NCBI GenBank assembly: GCA_963706595.1
Contig: OY970166.1
Coordinates: forward strand, 4,512,001-4,576,000
Source: an uncultured cyanobacterium
GTDB lineage: Bacteria; Cyanobacteriota; Cyanobacteriia; Cyanobacteriales; Nostocaceae
Direction of reading: 5' to 3'
Length of the DNA stretch: 64,000 nt
This document shows positions 14,567 to 60,269 of this stretch, one piece after another. Positions within the stretch are counted from its first letter, which is position 1, and each line of letters starts with the position of its first letter. The position numbers and the translations under genes were made by a program. The notes under the pieces are model-generated. The model ran no database searches and was not told the origin of the DNA. It saw nothing but the letters and a program-made list of their open reading frames with translations.

Positions 14567-14806
14567 ATGAGGAATTGTCAGATGAACGCTCATAAAATCG
14601 AAGTTATTTTAACTGAATATGGAACTTTGACATTGCAAGGTTTACCCTTTCATGCTGGCGAAGCTGTGGAAGTAATAATTTTGTCAGCTAAAACGCTACA
14701 AAATCAAGCAGATAAAAATCTTTATCCTTTGCATGACACACAGCCATATCAGTATGATGACCCCACAGAAACTGTTGCTTTAGAAGATTGGGAAGTTTTG
14801 CAATGA
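14567..14806 (+). CDS. Small antitoxin-like protein
   Basis: GTLTLQGLPFHAGEAVEVIIL and acidic C-terminus (YDDP..VALEDWEVL); stop overlaps the ATG of a PIN-like remnant. Confidence 0.55.
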   Translation: MRNCQMNAHKIEVILTEYGTLTLQGLPFHAGEAVEVIILSAKTLQNQADKNLYPLHDTQPYQYDDPTETVALEDWEVLQ

Positions 14807-16689: not shown

Positions 16690-17229
16690 ATAGTATTAAT
16701 CCTCACACTGTGATTGTTATCCCAACTTTAACGAAAATTAAGACTTATTGACTTTTTCTTAAATTTGCTTCAGTTTACCGTGATTTTTTTGACTTGGCAA
16801 TTATACTACAGTGACCTGATAGCCAAGTTTTCTGTTCCAATCAAGAATTTAATTATTGCAGAGGTTGTTTGGAATTGTAGGCGATCGCATTCAGCCTGAC
16901 CTAGTAACCACTCACTCATAGCACATTATTTGACATTTTTGCTCAGAAAAATTAGATACTTACAATAAGTAATAGCATTATTTGGTTACAAAGAGCGTTA
17001 TGAAACGCGAAGCTTAAACAATCGGTTTTTTCCATCTAAACTGCTTGCCAAAGCCAGAAAGCTCAATGAAAGTAGCGAATCATTTAATGATTTAAGCTGC
17101 TGTGCTTACTTGTGGAAAATAGCGTAAATATAGCAACCGCTAAGGTGATTTTGGGTAATTTGTCAAACATGATGTGATTTCCTTTTGCTAAAAAACCTGA
17201 CATTAAGGAGGTAAAGTTCAACTTACGTC

Positions 17230-17258
17230 TTGACATTGTTGTATTAATCTTCTAAACT
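17230..17258 (+). promoter_or_regulatory. Sigma70-type promoter of the QueC-like operon
   Basis: TTGACA-N17-TAAACT upstream of the GGAGGT RBS (17285) and ATG 17297. Confidence 0.6.
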
Positions 17259-17296
17259 CGTTGTATAAGCAGGGTTTCAGCATTGGAGGTCGAACC

Positions 17297-17920
17297 ATGC
17301 CTGACGGGGATATATTTCACGGGCTTTCAGGACTTTATCAGAAGCCATACAGAATCCTGTGTGAAGGAAAGTTTGAGCGCAACGAATGTGCCAGGATAAT
17401 GATGGAAGCCTTTTTAAAGGATCTCAAGAGGAAAGGTGCTGCTGCTATTGTGTTAGCCAAGCAGATGGGAGAACTCCTAACCCAAGAAATTCAAGACTCT
17501 GGTAATAATGAATCTATAGTTTGGGGCGATTTAAATAAAAAACTTGATAGATTCGTACAAACAGCCAACATACCAAATCGAACTAAGTCACTTGTCCTTG
17601 ATGCTGGAAAAAGTATTCTCCATGATTTACGTTATGGCCAGCAATTTGAAACCAGCACGATTGCAGAGGCTATAACAGAAGGATATATGCAAAAAGTGTA
17701 TGTATCAGAATTTGAGGGACGAATTCCACTCATTCCCAATCACCACGAAAAATTTGATATTTTAACTTTTACAGAGCGTGCAGAAGCAATAAGGAAAGAT
17801 ATTTTTGACCAGATCAGTAAATGGGCAAAAAAGGCGAATATAGATGATGATGTAGCCAAGCTAAAACGAAGTCGGCGATCGCAAGTTAAAGCAATAGACC
17901 TTGAGGAGGATCTGCTATGA
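17297..17920 (+). CDS. Hypothetical helical protein, first gene of the QueC-like operon (QatB position)
   Basis: GGAGGT RBS then MPDGDIFHG; stop overlaps the next ATG (ATGA). Confidence 0.75.
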   Translation: MPDGDIFHGLSGLYQKPYRILCEGKFERNECARIMMEAFLKDLKRKGAAAIVLAKQMGELLTQEIQDSGNNESIVWGDLNKKLDRFVQTANIPNRTKSLVLDAGKSILHDLRYGQQFETSTIAEAITEGYMQKVYVSEFEGRIPLIPNHHEKFDILTFTERAEAIRKDIFDQISKWAKKANIDDDVAKLKRSRRSQVKAIDLEEDLL

Positions 17921-19362
17921 ACAACAGACCTTCGCTTCAGCAAAAATCTTATGAAAGTGATTACAGCGATTACACTTTGCATTTTCAAGCTGTGTCTAAT
18001 AATTATGGATCTGTGCTGTTTGTTGATCACTCTCAGAATAAGAAGCTAACTGTTGGTATTAATGTAGATGATATAGAGTTCAAATATAGGGTTAAGGAAG
18101 AGTTTCCAGCTATTGCTGCGGATCTCATTGACCTTGCTGTTGCAATCTATACTTCAGATCGTCTTGCACCTCAAAGTCTTACAGAGAAGCAGCGCCGCTT
18201 TCATGTGATCCTGCCAGTACGTCATCCAGAATTGCTGAGTGCTGAAACATTTCTCACAAAACTAGATGACTTGCTGAAATGGACAACTGATAGCGAATGG
18301 GTTTTCGACTTCCGAAAACGGATTGCGCCAGAACGCTTAGTTGAACACCCATCTCTTTCCATAGCGCCCCAAGGATGTGAGGTGACTTTATGGAGTGGTG
18401 GACTTGATGCTCTCGCAGGTTTGTACACTCGCCTTCTGAAGTATCCAGAAAAAAAGTTCGTTTTGTTTGGAACTGGCAGCAACAATAGTGTATATGCCCG
18501 CCAGAAAAGAGTATATGAGAAAATTGAATCTCTCTTCCCTGGTCGTTGCAATCTTTTCCGCGTCCCTGTCCGATTTGATCATAGTAGTGAGCAGCACAAA
18601 AACAAGCTTTCCCGTGCAAGGGGTGTTGTCTTCACTCTCCTTGGTGCTGCGTGTGCATACCTTATGGGGCAACAAATTCTTTATCTGTATGAAAACGGAA
18701 TTGGTGCAATCAACCTTCCATATCGTGAATCGGCTGTGGGGTTGGATCACTCTCGTTCTGTTCATCCTCTGACTTTGCTGATGGTAAGTGATGTTGTTTC
18801 TGAGCTTTTAGGAGAAGATTTTCAGGTAAAAAACCCATTTTTGTTTTGGACTAAAGCCGAAATGTGCAAGGCATTGGCTAAAAATGGGAGAGAGGATTTA
18901 CCACCTTTCACTATGTCCTGTGACAGTCCACATCGTCAAAAGCCAGTTCAATGTGGTTACTGCTCCTCTTGTATTTTAAGGCGACAATCTCTTGCAGCCA
19001 GTAGCATAAAAGATAGAACTCGCTATGTTGTCTTGCATGGAAAGCGTCCAGAGAAAGATCCGAGTTTATGTTTCCTGAATATGCAGGCACAGGTTCGCAC
19101 TCTTGACTCTTTGTTTACTGTCTCAGATACAACTTGGAAAAATCTGACTAAAAAGTTTCCTGATCTGGATGACATTGTTGATCGAACTGCTTTAGCAGAA
19201 AATTTATTGCCTGCTGATATGCGAATTCGTCTAATTCAACTCTATCAAAATTACGTTTCCGAATGGAATGCTGTGGAATCGCAGATTGTAGAGGGATTAT
19301 TAAATAAAGGTAGTTATCATAAGGCATCTAGCAGATACGTAGTCTCATCTCAACAAGGTTGA
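17917..19362 (+). CDS. QueC/QatC-like PP-loop enzyme (7-cyano-7-deazaguanine synthase superfamily)
   Basis: SGGLDA PP-loop, ENG, SRSVHP, NPFLFWTKAEM, SC...CGYCSSCILRR zinc site; N-terminal DLIDLAVAIYTSDR...LPV...W.F.F extension as in QatC-type proteins. Confidence 0.82.
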   Translation: MNNRPSLQQKSYESDYSDYTLHFQAVSNNYGSVLFVDHSQNKKLTVGINVDDIEFKYRVKEEFPAIAADLIDLAVAIYTSDRLAPQSLTEKQRRFHVILPVRHPELLSAETFLTKLDDLLKWTTDSEWVFDFRKRIAPERLVEHPSLSIAPQGCEVTLWSGGLDALAGLYTRLLKYPEKKFVLFGTGSNNSVYARQKRVYEKIESLFPGRCNLFRVPVRFDHSSEQHKNKLSRARGVVFTLLGAACAYLMGQQILYLYENGIGAINLPYRESAVGLDHSRSVHPLTLLMVSDVVSELLGEDFQVKNPFLFWTKAEMCKALAKNGREDLPPFTMSCDSPHRQKPVQCGYCSSCILRRQSLAASSIKDRTRYVVLHGKRPEKDPSLCFLNMQAQVRTLDSLFTVSDTTWKNLTKKFPDLDDIVDRTALAENLLPADMRIRLIQLYQNYVSEWNAVESQIVEGLLNKGSYHKASSRYVVSSQQG

Positions 19363-19374
19363 GGGATAAACATT

Positions 19375-20584
19375 ATGGCTACCAACATCCTGGATAACAT
19401 CGACCTACGGATATTGGGTGAACTGCTGCAACAAGCACGGAAAAAGTGCGGGATGACTCAGGCTGATGCAGCTAAGGTGATTGATGCTGCACGTACTACT
19501 GTGATTGCTATTGAGAAAGGAGAACGCCGTCTCAAAGCAAATGAACTGATTAAACTTGCTCGTGCCTACGGACGTTCAGTGAGTGATTTCGTGCGATCGC
19601 GTCCTGTGGTACAACCTTTTGAGGTACAGTTTCGGGCAGTCTATCAACGCAGTCAAGAGCAACAGGCACAAATTGAGCCATTCATCCTTCATTTAGAGGA
19701 ATTGTGCCAAAATTATCTAGAACTTGAGAAGATTATGGACGCACCACTGCCGCATAATTATCCTCTTGAATATGAGGTAACAAATATGCCCATCAAGGCA
19801 GTCTGCGGAAAGTATAGCAGTTGCAGAGCGTCAACGGCTAGGACTGGGAGATGCGCCCATTTCCAGACTGCGGGACGTTCTAGAGCAAGATGTGGGTTTA
19901 CGTATCTTCTATTTGAAGATGCCACAAAAATACTCAGAAGTGTATAGTTACAACGAACAACTCGGCGGTTGCATGGCAATTAACGCCAATCACCCAGAGG
20001 AGCGGCGACGTTGGTCAATGGCGCATGGATACCTTCACTTTCTAGCACATCGACAAAAACCTGAATTTCACTATGATGGACAGTATCAAAGATTTCCTGA
20101 AAGTGAGCAATTAGCGGAAACTTTCCCCAAATATTTCTTAATGCCGACAAGTGGATTGCTCAAGCGGTTTAATGATATGTATCGTACACATGGCAAATTC
20201 ACTCCAACGAATTTGTTTACACTCGCTCATTACTACGGTGTTTCTGTAGAAGCACTTGTTTATCGGTTAGAAGAAATGGAACTTCTGCCTTCAGGAACTT
20301 GGGATAAATTACGAGATAGAGGTTTAAAAGTTAGAAAGGTACAGGAAGAACTTGGCTTAGAACAAATCCCCCAAAGGATTGATATGATGCCACTTCACTA
20401 TCAACATTTGGCAATTGAGGCATTCGATCAGGGTTTGATTACTGAAGGGCGTTTTGCTGATTTCCTTTGTGTTGACCGCTTAGAAGCCCGTCGCATTGCC
20501 GAAGCATTACGAGAGTATTCAAGCGGAATGATGGAGGAAGATACAGATTTTGATTTGCGACAAATAGAGATTGGTGGAAAGTGA
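19375..20584 (+). CDS. XRE-HTH fused to ImmA/IrrE (DUF955)-like peptidase; +1 frameshift at ~19802
   Basis: MTQADAAKVIDAARTTVIAIEKGER HTH; RRRWSMAHGYLH, E..A..F..YFLMP, YYGVSVEAL; removing one base gives IKAAAESIAVAERQRLGLGDAPI, joining the two ORFs. Confidence 0.8.
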
Positions 20585-20593
20585 GGACAATTT

Positions 20594-21154
20594 ATGCAAA
20601 TTACTCACTCCCACGTTCTTCTTGATGCTTGCTGTATTCTCAACTTTTGTGCTTCGGGTAAATTTCTGGAAATATTGAAATCTATTCCTGCTGAAGTTGT
20701 AGTGACTACAGTTGTACAAGAGTACGAGTTAAAAACTCTGCAACGGTTGAAGGATGAGGATAACGAGGGTGCAATTCAGTTTCAGGAAGCTATTAAACAA
20801 GGTCTACTACTGGTTGTAGATTTTGCATCAGCAGAAGAGGAAGAATTATTTGTCAACTATGCTGTGAATCTTGATGATGGTGAGTCTGCAACTTGTGCGA
20901 TCGCAGTTTACCGCAAATGGGCGATCGCAACTGATGACAAACGAGCGATCGCGGTTTTTCGACAAACAGCCCCAGACTTGCAAATTTTATCAACTCTAGA
21001 TATCATTAAACATTGGTCAGAGTTCTCAATGGTTGATTTGTCAGCACTAAGTAATGTACTCAATGCAATTCGGTTTAAGGCTCGGTATTTACCACCCAAA
21101 AGCCATCCTCTCCGCAGTTGGTGGGAAGCTGCTTTAACCGAAATTGAACTGTAA
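20594..21154 (+). CDS. PIN-domain protein (putative ribonuclease)
   Basis: LLDACCILNF, VQEYE, LDDGESATCAIA, IATDDKRA acidic tetrad. Confidence 0.8.
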   Translation: MQITHSHVLLDACCILNFCASGKFLEILKSIPAEVVVTTVVQEYELKTLQRLKDEDNEGAIQFQEAIKQGLLLVVDFASAEEEELFVNYAVNLDDGESATCAIAVYRKWAIATDDKRAIAVFRQTAPDLQILSTLDIIKHWSEFSMVDLSALSNVLNAIRFKARYLPPKSHPLRSWWEAALTEIEL

Positions 21155-21161
21155 TTTTTAT

Positions 21162-56253: not shown

Positions 56254-57411
56254 ATGGACTCTTTTGTGATCACAGACCATCAAGAGAGCCGTTATGGTCG
56301 GCATCATCTCATTGATTGGTGGAATCAGAATCGTCTCAAAACTGCCAGAGTCCTAGTTGCTGGAGCAGGTGCATTAGGTAACGAAGTACTCAAAAATCTA
56401 GCCTTGGTGGGTGTGGGTAAGATCACAGTCATTGACTTTGATACAGTTTCCATTACTAACCTGACTCGTTCGGTTTTGTTTCGAGAGTCTGATGTGGGCT
56501 TACCAAAAGTAGAAGTTGCTCGTCAAAAGGCGTTAGAAATTAATCCAGAAATCACCATACAGGCAATTCATGGAGATTTAGAATTCGACTTGGGTATTGG
56601 TGATGTCCGAGAGCATGATTTAATTATTGGTTGTCTGGATAGCATCAATGCACGTTGGGCAATTAATCAACTTGCCTATCGTGCGGGAATACCCTGGATA
56701 AATGGGGGAATTGGTGTATCGGAGGGAGAAGTCAGTTTTTTTGACCCCAAAACAGCAGCAGCTTGTTATGAGTGCAGCATTTCTAATCAAATGTGGGAAC
56801 GTCGTAACCAACGCTACTCTTGTCAAGGGATGAAACGCCATATCCCCGAAGCCGCAATGCCCACAACAGCTACAATTGCCTCCATAGTCGGAGCAATGCA
56901 AGTACAACAAGCTCTGCTTTATTTACATAGCAAAACAGGGTTATTAAATGCAGGTGAAAAAGTCTTTTTGGGTTTAAATCCTTGGATGGCTTTTAAAGTG
57001 CAAATCCAACGGCAAGAGGCTTGTATTGCCCATGATTTAACCATTATTCCCACAGAAAATATTAACTATGAGCCAAAGCTGACAGTGAAATCAGTTCTGC
57101 AAAGATTAGAACAGTCTGGATTTACAGAACCTATTCTCTGGTTAAGAAATGAAGTAATTGGGATGATGAGATGCCTCAATCTAGATTGTGGTTATCAAGA
57201 GCAAATTAATATTCCTCTGCGTCAATACCCTGAATCAAAACTAGCTTGTCCTAAATGTAATCATGAACGTGATTTTGAGGTAATTAGGAATATTTCACTA
57301 GCCTCACCTGGGGCAAATATTACCTTGGGAGAATTATGTCTACCGAACAACGAAATTTTACACTGCGCCACCAACAAAGGTGCAATAGCAATTCAACTTT
57401 GCCAAATATAG
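56254..57411 (+). CDS. E1-like ThiF-family ubiquitin-activating enzyme
   Basis: RYGRH, VAGAGALGNEVLKNLALVGVG, DFDTVSITNLTRSVLF, CYEC, candidate catalytic RYSCQ, PTTATIASIVG, C-terminal CxxxxC/CxxC. Confidence 0.9.
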   Translation: MDSFVITDHQESRYGRHHLIDWWNQNRLKTARVLVAGAGALGNEVLKNLALVGVGKITVIDFDTVSITNLTRSVLFRESDVGLPKVEVARQKALEINPEITIQAIHGDLEFDLGIGDVREHDLIIGCLDSINARWAINQLAYRAGIPWINGGIGVSEGEVSFFDPKTAAACYECSISNQMWERRNQRYSCQGMKRHIPEAAMPTTATIASIVGAMQVQQALLYLHSKTGLLNAGEKVFLGLNPWMAFKVQIQRQEACIAHDLTIIPTENINYEPKLTVKSVLQRLEQSGFTEPILWLRNEVIGMMRCLNLDCGYQEQINIPLRQYPESKLACPKCNHERDFEVIRNISLASPGANITLGELCLPNNEILHCATNKGAIAIQLCQI

Positions 57412-57427
57412 GAATATAAGAGCAACA

Positions 57428-57682
57428 ATGTCTGATTCAATTTCCCTTGTGATTCGTTCAGCAGATCAAACTCGTAAAGCTGCTGTTTCATTACCTCCAG
57501 CGCTAACTATAGAACAGTTACTACAAACTACCCAGGAAAAATGGAATCTCCCATCAAATACTAACTATGCCATGCGTTTAGAACGAACAGGACAACAATT
57601 AGATCCTGCAACAACTCTCGAAAGTCTGGGAGTTGAGGAAAATGATGTCCTGGAACTTTATCCAATTTTAGAGGCTGGTTAA
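57428..57682 (+). CDS. Ubiquitin-like beta-grasp protein (YukD/EsaB-like) ending in Gly
   Basis: 84 aa; LTIEQLL, GQQLDPATTLESLGVEENDVLEL, C-terminal LEAG. Confidence 0.85.
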   Translation: MSDSISLVIRSADQTRKAAVSLPPALTIEQLLQTTQEKWNLPSNTNYAMRLERTGQQLDPATTLESLGVEENDVLELYPILEAG

Positions 57683-57684
57683 TT

Positions 57685-58194
57685 ATGGGTATCAGAGAAA
57701 GACGATTAGAAAATGACTTTAAAGAATTAACCACATTAGTTAATACTTCCGGTGCAAAACTGGCGCTTATTTCCAAACAAGGACAACCACCATATCACTA
57801 TATAATTGAATATCGCTGTCGAGGCATAGCAAGAGTACAAGGAATAGAGCCTACTTTTCGCACTACTCACCGTGTAGAGATTAATATAGGTAGTAATTAT
57901 CCTAAAGAAAAACCTGACGCTAAGTTTCTCACAGCCATATTTCATCCTAATGTCTATACTAACCAAAGAGTGTGTCTCGGTAATTATTGGACAATGGCTG
58001 AAACCCTTTCGGAATTAGTGCTTCGCATTGGCAAAATCATCCAATACTCAGATGATGTCCTAAATTTAGAAAGTCCAGCTAATCCTGACGCTAAAAATTG
58101 GGCTAAAAATAATCTGCGGCGGTTTCCTGTGGATACACAAACTTTCAAAGTTAATCAAAAATTATTGACAACAATAGTTTGGAATGATTTATAA
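57685..58194 (+). CDS. E2/UBC-like ubiquitin-conjugating enzyme
   Basis: RRLENDF, YPKEKP..KFLTAIFHPNV...VCL...W (HPN motif plus Cys), NLESPANPDA. Confidence 0.9.
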   Translation: MGIRERRLENDFKELTTLVNTSGAKLALISKQGQPPYHYIIEYRCRGIARVQGIEPTFRTTHRVEINIGSNYPKEKPDAKFLTAIFHPNVYTNQRVCLGNYWTMAETLSELVLRIGKIIQYSDDVLNLESPANPDAKNWAKNNLRRFPVDTQTFKVNQKLLTTIVWNDL

Positions 58195-58861
58195 AATCAT
58201 TAAAAAACTTTTGCAAATATTTAGTTCATATAATTTATGGCAAGAATTTTATCACTCAAAATCTGTAACCATGAGCAACTTGAATCAAACTATGGATGAT
58301 GAAAATCAAATCATCTCACCTCAAAATGCACAAATTGAATGGGTAGAATGTGATGATGTTTATAAACCAATAGAAAAACCTATCGAGGAATTTTTAGCAG
58401 AACGAGGAATTGATATTAATTTCTTCTACCAAGTTTATATTTTAGAAACAGCACATACAACCCTATTAGAACATTTAAGAGAAGATACAAAGGTAGAACA
58501 TGGGGGTATTCTCTTTGGTAATGCTTACAGAGATTATGAATATGGAATTTATGTAGAAATTACAGCCGCAGTTCCAGCACCAGCCACAATGGGTACAGGT
58601 GTATATTTAGAATTTACAGCAGAATCATGGCTGAAAATTATGGATTATGCTAAAGCTGCTCATCCAGATGCAAATATTGTGGGATGGTATCATTCACATC
58701 CCAACCTTGGTGTATTTATGTCCGGAACAGATATGAGAACACAGCGAGCTTTTTTCTATCATCCTTGGTGTTCATCAATTGTTTTTGATCCTGTGAGAAA
58801 CCAAATTGCTTACTTTTTGGGTGAGGATGCAAATATGGTAAATATCATAAAATTTAGTTGA
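58184..58861 (+). CDS. JAB/MPN+ metalloprotease (deubiquitinase-like); start may be 58271
   Basis: EHGGILFG and GWYHSHPNLGVFMSGTD JAMM motif, VFDP. Confidence 0.9.
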   Translation: MIYKIIKKLLQIFSSYNLWQEFYHSKSVTMSNLNQTMDDENQIISPQNAQIEWVECDDVYKPIEKPIEEFLAERGIDINFFYQVYILETAHTTLLEHLREDTKVEHGGILFGNAYRDYEYGIYVEITAAVPAPATMGTGVYLEFTAESWLKIMDYAKAAHPDANIVGWYHSHPNLGVFMSGTDMRTQRAFFYHPWCSSIVFDPVRNQIAYFLGEDANMVNIIKFS

Positions 58862-58938
58862 TTTCGAGAAAATGAATAAACTTGCAACATCAGCTATAGC
58901 TGTAAATATTGATTATTTTTATCCAAAAAGCTGAAGAT

Positions 58939-59565
58939 ATGACCAATAATATCAGATATGTAAATTTGATTTGGCTAGGATTTGTTGGTGCATTTATTGG
59001 TGTGTTTATTGGTGTCTTGAAGGTGTTTAATTGGGATTTTATTTTTTTAGTGATATTTATAGTCGTAATTATTTGCTTAATCGCATTTTTGCATAAAAAG
59101 CTAACAGCTAATAATTCCGCACAAAACTCACAAAGACAGTCAACACCACAACGATTTTTATCTCCTAGTAATCAGACTAGAAATAACTTTTCATTAACTC
59201 AGAGGAGTTTACAAAATATTCAATGGACTGAAATAGGTACATATTCATCAAATAATTCTCAAACAACTGAAGAAAATAATATTACATTTGATGATTTTAT
59301 AGACTTGCATGATGCTACAGCCAATACAAAAGAACTGATAAATAATTTAATAGGACAAAAAGATCGTGTAACTGGTGATATATTTAATCCAGGTGAAAAA
59401 GTATATTTCTGTGTTCCCTGTCAACTAGGATATCACCAAGATAGTTGGCGATTTTTAGATAGAAAGTGTGAACAATGCAAATCTCCTCACGCGAGTAAGT
59501 ATACTCTTACCGTTTCGAGAGTGAGTGAACAGCCATTGGATACCTCTAACCCTTCTTTAACATAA
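58939..59565 (+). CDS. Two-TM membrane protein with C-terminal degenerate RING-like Zn finger (candidate E3)
   Basis: Two hydrophobic helices, polar linker, DRVTGDIF...YFCVPCQLGYHQDSW...KCEQC. Confidence 0.65.
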   Translation: MTNNIRYVNLIWLGFVGAFIGVFIGVLKVFNWDFIFLVIFIVVIICLIAFLHKKLTANNSAQNSQRQSTPQRFLSPSNQTRNNFSLTQRSLQNIQWTEIGTYSSNNSQTTEENNITFDDFIDLHDATANTKELINNLIGQKDRVTGDIFNPGEKVYFCVPCQLGYHQDSWRFLDRKCEQCKSPHASKYTLTVSRVSEQPLDTSNPSLT

Positions 59566-59648
59566 TTAGAATTAGAAAATTCAATATTTTAACAACATCT
59601 TCTAGAAATTAATTTAAATAAATGTTTCCAGTTGCGGGAAGTACAAAC

Positions 59649-60269
59649 ATGAAAATTTTATATGGAATTGAACCATATATATGTATTAACAATCCTGATA
59701 TCTTAATGAATTTTTCTTTAGATATTGTATTACCTCAATATTTCCTCACCCAAATTACCCATTTGAGTAATAGTAATTTTGGTAATGCGACTGTATCAGC
59801 AAATAAAATTATCAACTCATTACATCGATGGGAAAATTCAAATTTATTATTTAAAACCAACGCAAAAGGAACCGTTTATTTTATAGCTGAAGCAATCAAC
59901 TATCTTAAAGTTGACAGCCAATATCAGAACATAGATAATACGAATCTACTAGACAGATATTTATTAAGTCTTTTATATTTATCCAATATTCTAGAAGCAA
60001 AAATAGTCTTTTTAGCGTCATCGCCTGAAATGATTGGCAAATGTCGCATTTTAAATTTAGACCCTGTTACTTTAGCCGAATTTACGCTGAATGGTGAGTC
60101 TTGGTTACAACCAGAAATGTTAATTAATATGGAAACAAGTCACCCAGATATAGTTAGTGAACCCGATATTTTAGATGCTTCAGAAAGAGAGACAACTGTA
60201 CAAATTCAATGGTTAGATATTAGAGTTTCACAAGAGACAAGTAATATTCAATGGCTAGATATGAGATAG
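59649..60269 (+). CDS. Hypothetical protein, probable degenerate PIN-like fold with duplicated IQWLD tail
   Basis: YGIEPYICINNPDIL..F..IVLPQYFLTQI, DRYLL, IVFLASS.EM..KCRIL spacing parallels PIN domains; alternative start at 59622. Confidence 0.55.
   Translation: MKILYGIEPYICINNPDILMNFSLDIVLPQYFLTQITHLSNSNFGNATVSANKIINSLHRWENSNLLFKTNAKGTVYFIAEAINYLKVDSQYQNIDNTNLLDRYLLSLLYLSNILEAKIVFLASSPEMIGKCRILNLDPVTLAEFTLNGESWLQPEMLINMETSHPDIVSEPDILDASERETTVQIQWLDIRVSQETSNIQWLDMR

Follow-up and report, generated by a model that had tools for sequence, protein, structure and literature searches.

A putative mobile defence cassette joining a QatBC-like core to an HTH-M78/PIN gene pair in a cyanobacterium

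Four coupled genes, here called A to D, lie on the plus strand at positions 17297-21154 of the 64,000-nucleotide stretch of DNA that we analysed (the window), and are most likely a variant of anti-phage defence, a function suggested by analogy and context. What is new is a QatBC-like core joined to an HTH-M78/PIN pair under one operator, each part being of a known kind. The sequence-only reading had recognised no named system in this combination, and none was found by PADLOC or in literature searches; the four-gene cassette looks undescribed, being absent from the literature searched. On balance, and with modest conviction, we regard it as a mobile, self-repressed defence cassette in which a toxin-antitoxin (TA) module would regulate and stabilise the QatBC-like core.

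Gene A (17297..17920, +) encodes a 207-aa, all-helical protein, the probable counterpart of QatB. Gene B (17917..19362, +) encodes a 481-aa QatC-like PP-loop ATP pyrophosphatase that carries a Zn site and is extended at both ends, gene C (19375..20584, +; frameshifted in this assembly) an XRE-HTH plus M78 (ImmA/IrrE) protein resembling RmrA and VapB52, and gene D (20594..21154, +) a 186-aa PIN-domain protein of DUF3368/COG2405-like type. A and B overlap at ATGA, and gaps of 12 bp and 9 bp separate B from C and C from D; the coordinates bear out the earlier description of four coupled genes between housekeeping genes. Gene A starts at the ATG at 17297; the TTG at 17261 chosen by the ORF finder is not conserved as a start. 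Comparison with relatives showed that the housekeeping genes on either side enclose a hotspot of variable TA cassettes. A decayed RHH antitoxin gene remnant (16980..17095, +), from a neighbouring RHH-PIN cassette, lies outside the operon; window positions 16721-17094 are 90.6% identical to positions 1-372 of a relative locus (L051), and a same-genus genome (G009) has an intact RHH-PIN pair there.

The four-gene order recurs far beyond the source genome. Among 112 partly redundant loci picked by similarity to B, A lay upstream of B in 93 of the 96 with room, C downstream in 98 of 98, and D was present in 79 of 79. The identical order was found on plasmids of Methylocystis, Bosea, Pannonibacter, Labrenzia, Roseomonas and Agrobacterium, in three of which RM, Shedu or AbiEii genes adjoin the cassette; the co-occurrence of QueC-like and HTH/PIN pairs, on which the sequence-only reading had staked its proposal, thus extends to other genomes. 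In locus L138 the cassette precedes type I RM. Distribution is patchy, with B in 16 of 401 genomes of the cyanobacterial phylum and in 1 of 10 other genomes of the same genus, at the TA hotspot. An IMG/VR search gave two distant loci, a phage collection only four weak matches, to C, and three metagenome runs contigs of relatives only. Of the 108 ORFs immediately flanking the loci, about 8 match plausible defence profiles (pAgo three times, ThsB, DrmD, PDC-S03, PDC-S50 and PD-Lambda-2B), few of them in cyanobacteria, a count that has no background control and excludes generic kinase, RT, TnpB-like and TPR matches.

Decay is frequent among relatives, and 11 of 26 cyanobacterial C copies stand without A-B, several through clear deletion. 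Such repeated loss of A-B while C-D stays means that the modules are not obligately coupled, and obligate four-gene coupling was rejected. The proposal that C-D is the effector module of a Qat-like core needs qualifying, since C-D is not simply dependent on A-B. We counted both the scarcity of defence neighbours and the loss of A-B with C-D kept against a QatBC-plus-TA defence reading.

A sigma70-type promoter, TTGACA-17-TAAACT, lies at 17230..17258 (+), and its -35 box doubles as the left arm of an operator with palindromic sequence, TGACA-W-TGTCA. The consensus promoter claimed earlier stands in part: relatives conserve its -35 half within the operator, but the motif alone is not above chance (18 sites vs 13.3 +/- 4.1 in shuffles). 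The perfect palindrome occurs in 49 of 84 upstream regions (shuffles, 0), the palindrome with at most two mismatches in 78 of 84 (shuffles, 5.3), and at least two TGACA/TGTCA half-sites in 83 of 84 (shuffles, 3.0). In this genome's copy the right arm is degenerate (TGACATTGTTG); an upstream half-site, CTGACATT (17197..17204, +), is present 5' of gene A in most relatives. The operator also stands 5' of gene A on alphaproteobacterial plasmids. Conservation of this operator across phyla, at a position overlapping the -35 box, makes C the probable repressor of the whole operon, presumably by binding TGACA-W-TGTCA. A scan of the whole source genome (G000) gave zero perfect operator copies, and thus no wider regulon.

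Profile, structure-database and tree comparisons put B on the QatC side rather than with housekeeping QueC. B matched QatC at 8.2e-40 in PADLOC and at 149.5 bits in NCBIfam, below the cut-off of 280, and in the PDB matched only QatC (9zee and 9vlk, at 5.9e-19 and 5.6e-18). The tree places it away from QueC in a clade of its own (support 100/99), without resolving the deeper branching; that all A-B-C-D enzymes form one group apart from QatC, with support of 52/86, is not established. As first described, the enzyme has a QueC PP-loop, a Zn site and an N-terminal extension; the PP-loop, which includes S160 and D164, is the variant SGGLDA, not SGGxDS (the second serine is Ala in 60 of 95), and the Zn cysteines are C335, C346, C349 and C352. 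By the motif definitions of PMC13329287, B has the QatC-type ENG, HP, P(x)4TK and CGxCxxCxxRR and lacks the canonical QueC motifs YxQxHxxE, VPxRN and YPDC; its 481 residues compare with about 220 in QueC. One alphaproteobacterial B carries a YPDYR loop.

Gene A found no family in Pfam, PADLOC, NCBIfam, PDB sequence or Atlas searches. The top Foldseek match of its all-helical structure model (pLDDT 87.4) was QatB, a weak one (E 0.39, TM 0.39), and the comparison of folds (Z 7.5, rmsd 5.0, 159 aligned) was tied with unrelated helical matches. A wider structural search returned partial helical matches only, with QatB absent from the top 50 listed, and hhalign against four plasmid QatB sequences detected no sequence similarity (probability 0.1%). 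The lack of sequence similarity to QatB and the weakness of the fold match were counted against our preferred explanation. The N-terminus of A reads MPDGD, and D3 and D5 are invariant in 70 sequences; position 2 in 87 Met-starting sequences is P in 76, A in 7, T in 2, L in 1 and S in 1, and never G. Alphaproteobacterial counterparts begin MSDG. The A profile left the first genes of alphaproteobacterial and viral-contig loci undetected (E 0.13-0.85), only its N-terminal 48 columns aligning, weakly, with them (probability 16%); the case for their homology to A is therefore made from position, size, xDG start and the shared operator.

A model of the A-B complex scored 0.91 (best control, 0.01); the mark used is attained by 116 of 157 complexes of solved structure and by 2 of 215 mismatched pairs. 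At least 86% of contacts agreed between runs, with partner pLDDT of at least 81. The predicted contacts join residues 3-9 of A to B 266-281, a loop that aligns with QatC 265-282, and to B 408-423 and 231-235, the same surfaces that bind QatB in QatBC (PMC13279940, PMC13639016). A is thus predicted to bind B on its QatB-binding surfaces, a prediction that may echo the solved QatBC structures and for that reason also weighs against our preferred explanation, and is a probable QatB counterpart. The suggestion of a Qat-like partner upstream gains from this QatB-like docking but loses from the N-terminus of A, which is without the glycine modified in Qat and type IV CBASS.

A single extra base, at about 19798-19802, breaks gene C into a 190-aa HTH ORF and, in a second frame, an M78 part. 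Relatives are without this base; the orthologue in L001 is an intact 402 aa, and C is also intact in G009. Scytonema HK-05 is another source of an intact natural copy of the cassette. The source genome, 94% complete as one contig, has two frame changes and two internal stops among 75 orthologues, and real decay is common in the cassette; the frameshift may be an assembly error or a real lesion. C matches 14 RmrA profiles over its length in PADLOC (best 1.2e-25, for the intact orthologue), and its best PDB relative is 9vzy_A (3.7e-11), whose H/H/C/E spacing appears to fit VapB52 as numbered in PMC13273310. The FR motif (F86-R87) and all three Zn ligands are kept, the latter in 87 of 87 copies each. 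The catalytic position is G in 47, D in 20 and E in 20, the motif here being HGYLH, with Gly for Glu. Hence the peptidase named by the sequence-only reading is mostly a pseudo-peptidase, more likely the operon's repressor or antitoxin; for most copies an active-protease model was rejected, the Glu being missing in 67. D is a PIN by fold and by Atlas look-alikes, with no Pfam match to D itself. Nearly all top Foldseek rows listed for its model (pLDDT 92.7) are of PIN/VapC type (best E 1.1e-3, prob 1.00), it scored 0.98 against Atlas clusters with 29-42% DUF3368, and D11, E45, D95, E97 and D114 are conserved acidic residues.

In the explanation that we prefer, A and B would make up a 1:1 complex like that of QatB and QatC. 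B, as a PP-loop adenylating enzyme, would keep the short x-D-G-D tail of A in its active site, where it probably modifies that tail. A-B would be the likely protective core, since QatBC by itself is so in Qat, where it defends against some phages (PMC13279940). The HTH of C would bind the operator over the -35 box and keep all four genes down, while C would also neutralise D, a putative PIN RNase giving growth arrest and addiction. Infection or DNA stress might then relieve C, inducing the operon and freeing D; relief through self-cleavage at FR could operate only in the minority keeping the catalytic Glu, and a non-proteolytic route would serve the rest.

A tentative rival, which we hold to be on the unlikely side, makes A-B the sensor and trigger of D in one signalling chain, modification of A (or C) by B replacing autoproteolysis. 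This would suit a C that mostly lacks its catalytic Glu and yet retains its Zn ligands and FR motif, and that is the most conserved gene over 64 loci (64%, vs 34% for A, 49% for B and 46% for D). B of this clade was not seen without C downstream, bar one decayed remnant, and a B gene adjoins the closest plasmid homologues of C but none of the three more distant homologues that were checked. Against it, C copies with Glu also have A-B, and 10 of the 11 A-B-less copies carry Gly and persist. Rather unlikely, too, is a cross-phylum immune system in which B modifies a glycine-less x-D-G-D partner and a dead M78 domain reads modified A, derepresses the operon and frees the PIN RNase in place of autoproteolysis; candidate modifications would be an amide or ring derived from Asp after its adenylation, or attachment of a nucleobase to residue 2. 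If true, such a switch would connect QatBC-type chemistry with a defined effector, a link so far missing.

We think it improbable that the locus is a selfish addiction cassette or general stress module, with C-D an ordinary three-component TA and A-B cargo with another job, such as modifying a host factor under stress. Its place among interchangeable TA cassettes, the frequent decay and A-B deletion, the few cyanobacterial defence neighbours and the long-known candidacy of HTH-M78 plus PIN pairs as TAs (PMC2701414, PMC5499597) speak for it; but all characterised long QueC paralogues of B's architecture are defence enzymes (PMC13329287, PMC13279940), VapBC52 and RosmerTA are anti-phage (PMC13273310, PMC10440598), and genes of RM, Shedu, pAgo, DISARM or Thoeris adjoin several plasmid or metagenome copies. 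It is highly improbable that B is a metabolic QueC, supplying preQ0 for the modification of tRNA or DNA, and that its neighbours are incidental: B matches Pfam QueC (6.9e-7) and 7-cyano-7-deazaguanine synthase is the automatic annotation of its plasmid homologues, but the QueC motifs are absent, B groups with QatC, no que/dpd partners travel with it and the genome's own canonical QueC lies about 405 kb away (C1:4123342), so housekeeping identity was rejected. The earlier statement that queD, queE, folE and tgt are absent nearby agrees with what we found: QueD/PTPS-family matches lie at 2.29 Mb, and queE, folE and tgt are not evident by eye in the window's ORF list.

Three structure papers of 2026 state the QatBC mode of protection and the QatC reaction as open questions, the second of which weighs against our preferred explanation. 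Here the family offers a natural experiment: the predicted complex is the same, yet it lacks QatA, QatD and the N-terminal glycine regarded as essential, and it lies next to an easy read-out (PIN toxicity by D) and a defined operator; natural A-B deletions and the Glu, Gly and Asp variants of C are ready comparisons. Roughly two-thirds of QatC-cluster genes have no qatA/qatD neighbours (PMC13329287), part of which the A-B-C-D family may explain. Many plasmid genes labelled preQ0 synthase are mis-annotated.

Among known systems, type IV CBASS shares a QueC-family enzyme (Cap9) acting on the N-terminus of a partner, and CapH/CapP an HTH and M78 domain regulating a defence operon. In contrast, B is long and QatC-type, the acceptor glycine is absent from A, and in C the HTH and M78 are fused and inside the operon; type IV CBASS was rejected, as PADLOC matched no CD-NTase or Cap10/TGT in the four genes or 108 flanking ORFs. 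RosmerTA is approached by the RmrA-like C, but neither D nor A matches an RmrT profile (RmrT toxins being diverse), the protease motif of C is degenerate and A-B is extra. HTH-DUF955/PIN three-component TAs were predicted long ago (Makarova 2009, Matelska 2017; PMC2701414, PMC5499597), and C-D has the VapBC52-type arrangement (Rv2515c-Rv2514c), a fused XRE-HTH and M78 antitoxin gene of about 400 codons upstream of a PIN gene, with the FR motif at the HTH junction and H/H/E Zn ligands. It differs in its DUF3368-like PIN, the preceding A-B and the conserved operator before A; the catalytic Glu is missing from most C copies and there is no cysteine switch, which bars the VapB52 trigger from most of them.

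Closest to A-B is QatABCD (PDB 9y01/9y02, 9zee, 9vlk). The absence of KAP-ATPase and TatD noted at the outset is confirmed: profile searches, one built from four plasmid QatA, found zero QatA and zero QatD in 113 loci, 43 of which have at least 2 kb upstream and at least 1 kb downstream, while finding QatA at a true Qat locus (L169) and QatD in L168-L170. Canonical Qat was rejected on these absences and on the partner's lack of the MGTS glycine, the tail of A being very short where QatB has MGTS and 30-90 disordered residues. QatC is reported to fail to complement a queC deletion, and its T-R-T substrate loop is S-R-S in B. The two systems share a QueC paralogue lengthened at both ends, with a PP-loop, a Zn site of four cysteines and ENG/HP/P(x)4TK motifs, and a helical partner gene directly upstream; the product of gene A is predicted to contact the loop and C-terminal helices that are used in QatBC, its N-tail pointing toward the active site; B, in its separate well-supported clade, is followed instead by HTH-M78 and PIN genes.

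The window comes from a cyanobacterium of Nostocales type, judging by the named genomes with the nearest relatives. It contains four coupled genes, flanked by a gene for a B12-binding radical SAM protein on one side and an NAD epimerase gene on the other, and their overlap and gaps are as the sequence-only reading had described: A (17297-17920), encoding a putative partner protein; B (17917-19362), which overlaps A and encodes a QatC-like enzyme; C (19375-20584), encoding an HTH + M78 protein; and D (20594-21154), encoding a PIN protein. The GC content of this region (39-43%) is similar to that of its surroundings. C contains one extra base near 19798-19802, which is absent from a same-genus genome with an intact cassette (G009) and from contigs of two lake metagenomes. 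Should the frameshift be genuine, the HTH part that survives could, by analogy with VapB52, still repress and bind D.

The gene order proved to be conserved elsewhere. At 30 genome loci, C always follows B; D comes next in 29, the contig of the other one stopping short, and A lies ahead of B in 28. Among 112 loci, all selected via B and partly redundant (these 30, the 80 best of 451 metagenome matches and 2 viral), A was present in 93/96, C in 98/98 and D in 79/79 of those where the contig gave room, so that the QueC and HTH/PIN pairs do co-occur in other genomes; the two viral-collection loci carry a divergent gene of A size at the A position. Profiles of QatA, QatB and QatD, which found three canonical Qat loci, had no match in the 112 loci, in agreement with the proposed lack of a KAP-ATPase and TatD. 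In three metagenome loci (L105, L121, L127) a prokaryotic Argonaute gene directly follows D.

Plasmids carry the order as well. The B search led to 12 plasmid regions, of which six had it (Methylocystis, Bosea, Pannonibacter, Labrenzia, Roseomonas and Shinella, the last with A identified by position and its MSDG start), and six were Qat or Qat-like. From the C search, one of four (Agrobacterium) had the order; the three others, more distant, held C-like genes without A-B. Distant cassette copies also lie among phage-like genes on viral-collection contigs L137 (3310-7259) and L138 (5372-9044), in the latter followed by a type I RM system. A Bradyrhizobium plasmid (L146, 375-6128) has a Qat-like variant with a 1041-aa gene, an MGSG-starting QatB-like gene, a QatC-like gene and, in the TatD position, an ASCH-domain gene.

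Upstream of A, the sequence TGACA-W-TGTCA overlaps the -35 box; it is perfect in 49/84 cases and within two mismatches in 78/84, compared with 0 and 5.3 in shuffled controls. A second half-site is usual about 32-33 bp upstream, and the operator likewise precedes A on alphaproteobacterial plasmids. Because the only DNA-binding domain of the cassette is the HTH of C, this protein most likely represses all four genes. The operator thus ties A-B and C-D into one regulated unit across phyla.

C, an XRE-HTH + M78 protein, matches the PADLOC profiles of RmrA, the antitoxin of RosmerTA, reportedly described by Millman in 2022. Its closest PDB relative is 9vzy_A, which we infer from the residue spacing in PMC13273310 to be VapB52. 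According to that paper, the FR motif of VapB52 is self-cleaved upon ssDNA binding, and its N-terminal domain binds the toxin, a PIN-domain tRNase that has anti-phage activity. C retains FR and all three Zn ligands (87/87) but, unlike VapB52, has no switch cysteine. At the catalytic position, 47 of the 87 sequences have Gly, 20 Asp and 20 Glu, the last being the catalytic residue of metallopeptidases. D is a PIN protein by predicted fold, resembles DUF3368 clusters and keeps the acidic residues. Of the proposed HTH-peptidase and PIN nuclease, the HTH/M78 and PIN assignments hold; peptidase activity is unlikely for most copies, the catalytic Glu being present in 20/87. More distant HTH-M78 + PIN pairs (L209, L210) stand beside genes that we take to be bacterial ubiquitin-like (Ubl, E2, E1/JAB). 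In the window, 56254-60269 contains what look like a ThiF/E1-like and then an E2-like gene, with three low-GC ORFs (29-38%), possibly a ubiquitin-like conjugation island.

How tightly are the two modules coupled? A C profile found the clade in 26 cyanobacterial genomes, 15 with B upstream and 11 without. Immediately ahead of C, at least six of these 11 (L185, L186, L188, L193, L195, L198) have the operator or A/B remnants in fused form, and placing the A-B-less copies on the C tree takes 8 changes, with strong branches forcing at least 6. In precise natural deletions (L185, L193, L195, L189), the A start is joined to the B end or directly to C, which puts C-D behind the promoter of the operon. 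Therefore, A-B has been lost by deletion several times and C-D can exist by itself; this is the chief evidence against a tightly coupled machine of four proteins. That A-B serves as a trigger for D seems to us unlikely. We lean instead towards a QatBC-like core, A-B, that a VapBC52-like TA, C-D, would regulate and stabilise.

Presence of the cassette is patchy. A search of 401 genomes of the phylum gave B matches in 19, of which 14 are full-length members, one is an internal deletion, one a remnant and three are canonical Qat. The site is occupied by the cassette in 1/10 other same-genus genomes; eight others have shuffled TA cassettes (which we take to be DUF433/DUF5615-like, RHH-PIN, MNT-HEPN and PIN), different accessory genes or, in G007, a CRISPR-Cas locus. 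This radical SAM-epimerase gap (16690-21160; L043-L055) is a cassette hotspot where the same few TA pairs vary in number and order among same-genus genomes. Between cassettes in L043 and L046, and elsewhere in the source genome, a HIP1-flanked element of 34-49 bp occurs repeatedly; integron-like shuffling is worth considering. At 14567-14806, there is a 79-aa ORF without a Pfam match that most same-genus relatives lack at this position; it resembles small cyanobacterial antitoxin-like proteins. Neighbours of the cassette include type I RM, Eco57I, Shedu, AbiEii, pAgo, DISARM and Thoeris. A defence role is suggested by some of these neighbours, by the parent systems and by the mobility and patchiness of the cassette, but only about 8 of 108 immediate neighbours were defence-like (raw count). 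A selfish or stress cassette we regard as improbable.

A metabolic QueC is highly improbable: B matches Pfam QueC (6.9e-7), but canonical QueC motifs are absent, QatC-type motifs, as listed in PMC13329287, are present, and the genome's canonical QueC lies 405 kb away. The enzyme is thus QatC-like, as had been proposed, rather than a housekeeping QueC. PADLOC gives QatC at 8.2e-40, and the only two PDB sequence matches are QatC, although NCBIfam QatC scores 149.5 bits, below its cut-off of 280. Where QatC has a T-R-T loop, which is reported to be essential, B has S-R-S. The PP-loop is SGGLDA in 60/95 relatives and SGGLDS in 35/95. A library of 50%-identity representatives yielded 466 proteins at E values up to 1e-30, of which the top 150 are mostly 33-50% identical over the full length, whereas plasmid QatC is about 25-33% identical. 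In a 27-row tree, which resolves these clades rather than the deeper branches, 13 B-family members form a clade (100/99) distinct from that of QatC (99/97). Alphaproteobacterial B (L144, L147-L149) has the PP-loop S[ED]GMDS and a substrate loop, Y[PA]D[YH]RN[HN]P, that resembles YPDCRP of QueC and differs from QatC and the cyanobacterial clade; it may still use a deazaguanine substrate. In one database protein (P0197), which could be an assembly artefact, an A-like region is fused to B.

No family emerged for A from Pfam, PADLOC, NCBIfam, Atlas or PDB sequence comparison. It is the fastest-evolving gene of the cassette (34% mean identity); nonetheless, D3 and D5 are invariant, and the first genes of alphaproteobacterial cassettes begin MSDG. 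Its model is all-helical (pLDDT 87.4). Among 350,542 chains, Foldseek ranked QatB top, as a weak match (E 0.39, probability 0.75, TM 0.39). In VIA, QatB gave the longest alignment among the matches listed (rmsd 5.0 over 159 residues), with a Z of 7.5 tied with an unrelated 79-residue match. The A-B complex prediction scored 0.91 (best control, 0.01), against a mark reached by 116/157 solved and 2/215 mismatched pairs, with contact agreement of at least 86% and partner pLDDT of at least 81. Its predicted contacts (B 266-281, 408-423, 231-235, 336, 349-351; A 3-9) follow the pattern of QatBC. Because solved QatBC structures exist, the prediction shows likeness to QatBC and is not proof of binding.

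The four-gene combination was not described in the papers covered, though listing in a large candidate table is possible; they comprise parts of PMC13329287, PMC13279940, PMC13639016, PMC13376578, PMC13273310, PMC5499597, PMC7907104, PMC10440598, PMC8649781, PMC2701414 and the preprint bioRxiv 10.1101/2025.09.30.679545. PF06114 and PF11848 were not found in the one supplement file of PMC13329287 that was searched. In conclusion, the cassette is real, conserved and apparently undescribed, and to that extent the new candidate system stands; its novelty is one of combination. QatABCD, reportedly discovered by Gao in 2020, does not include it as defined: the cassette combines two already known kinds.
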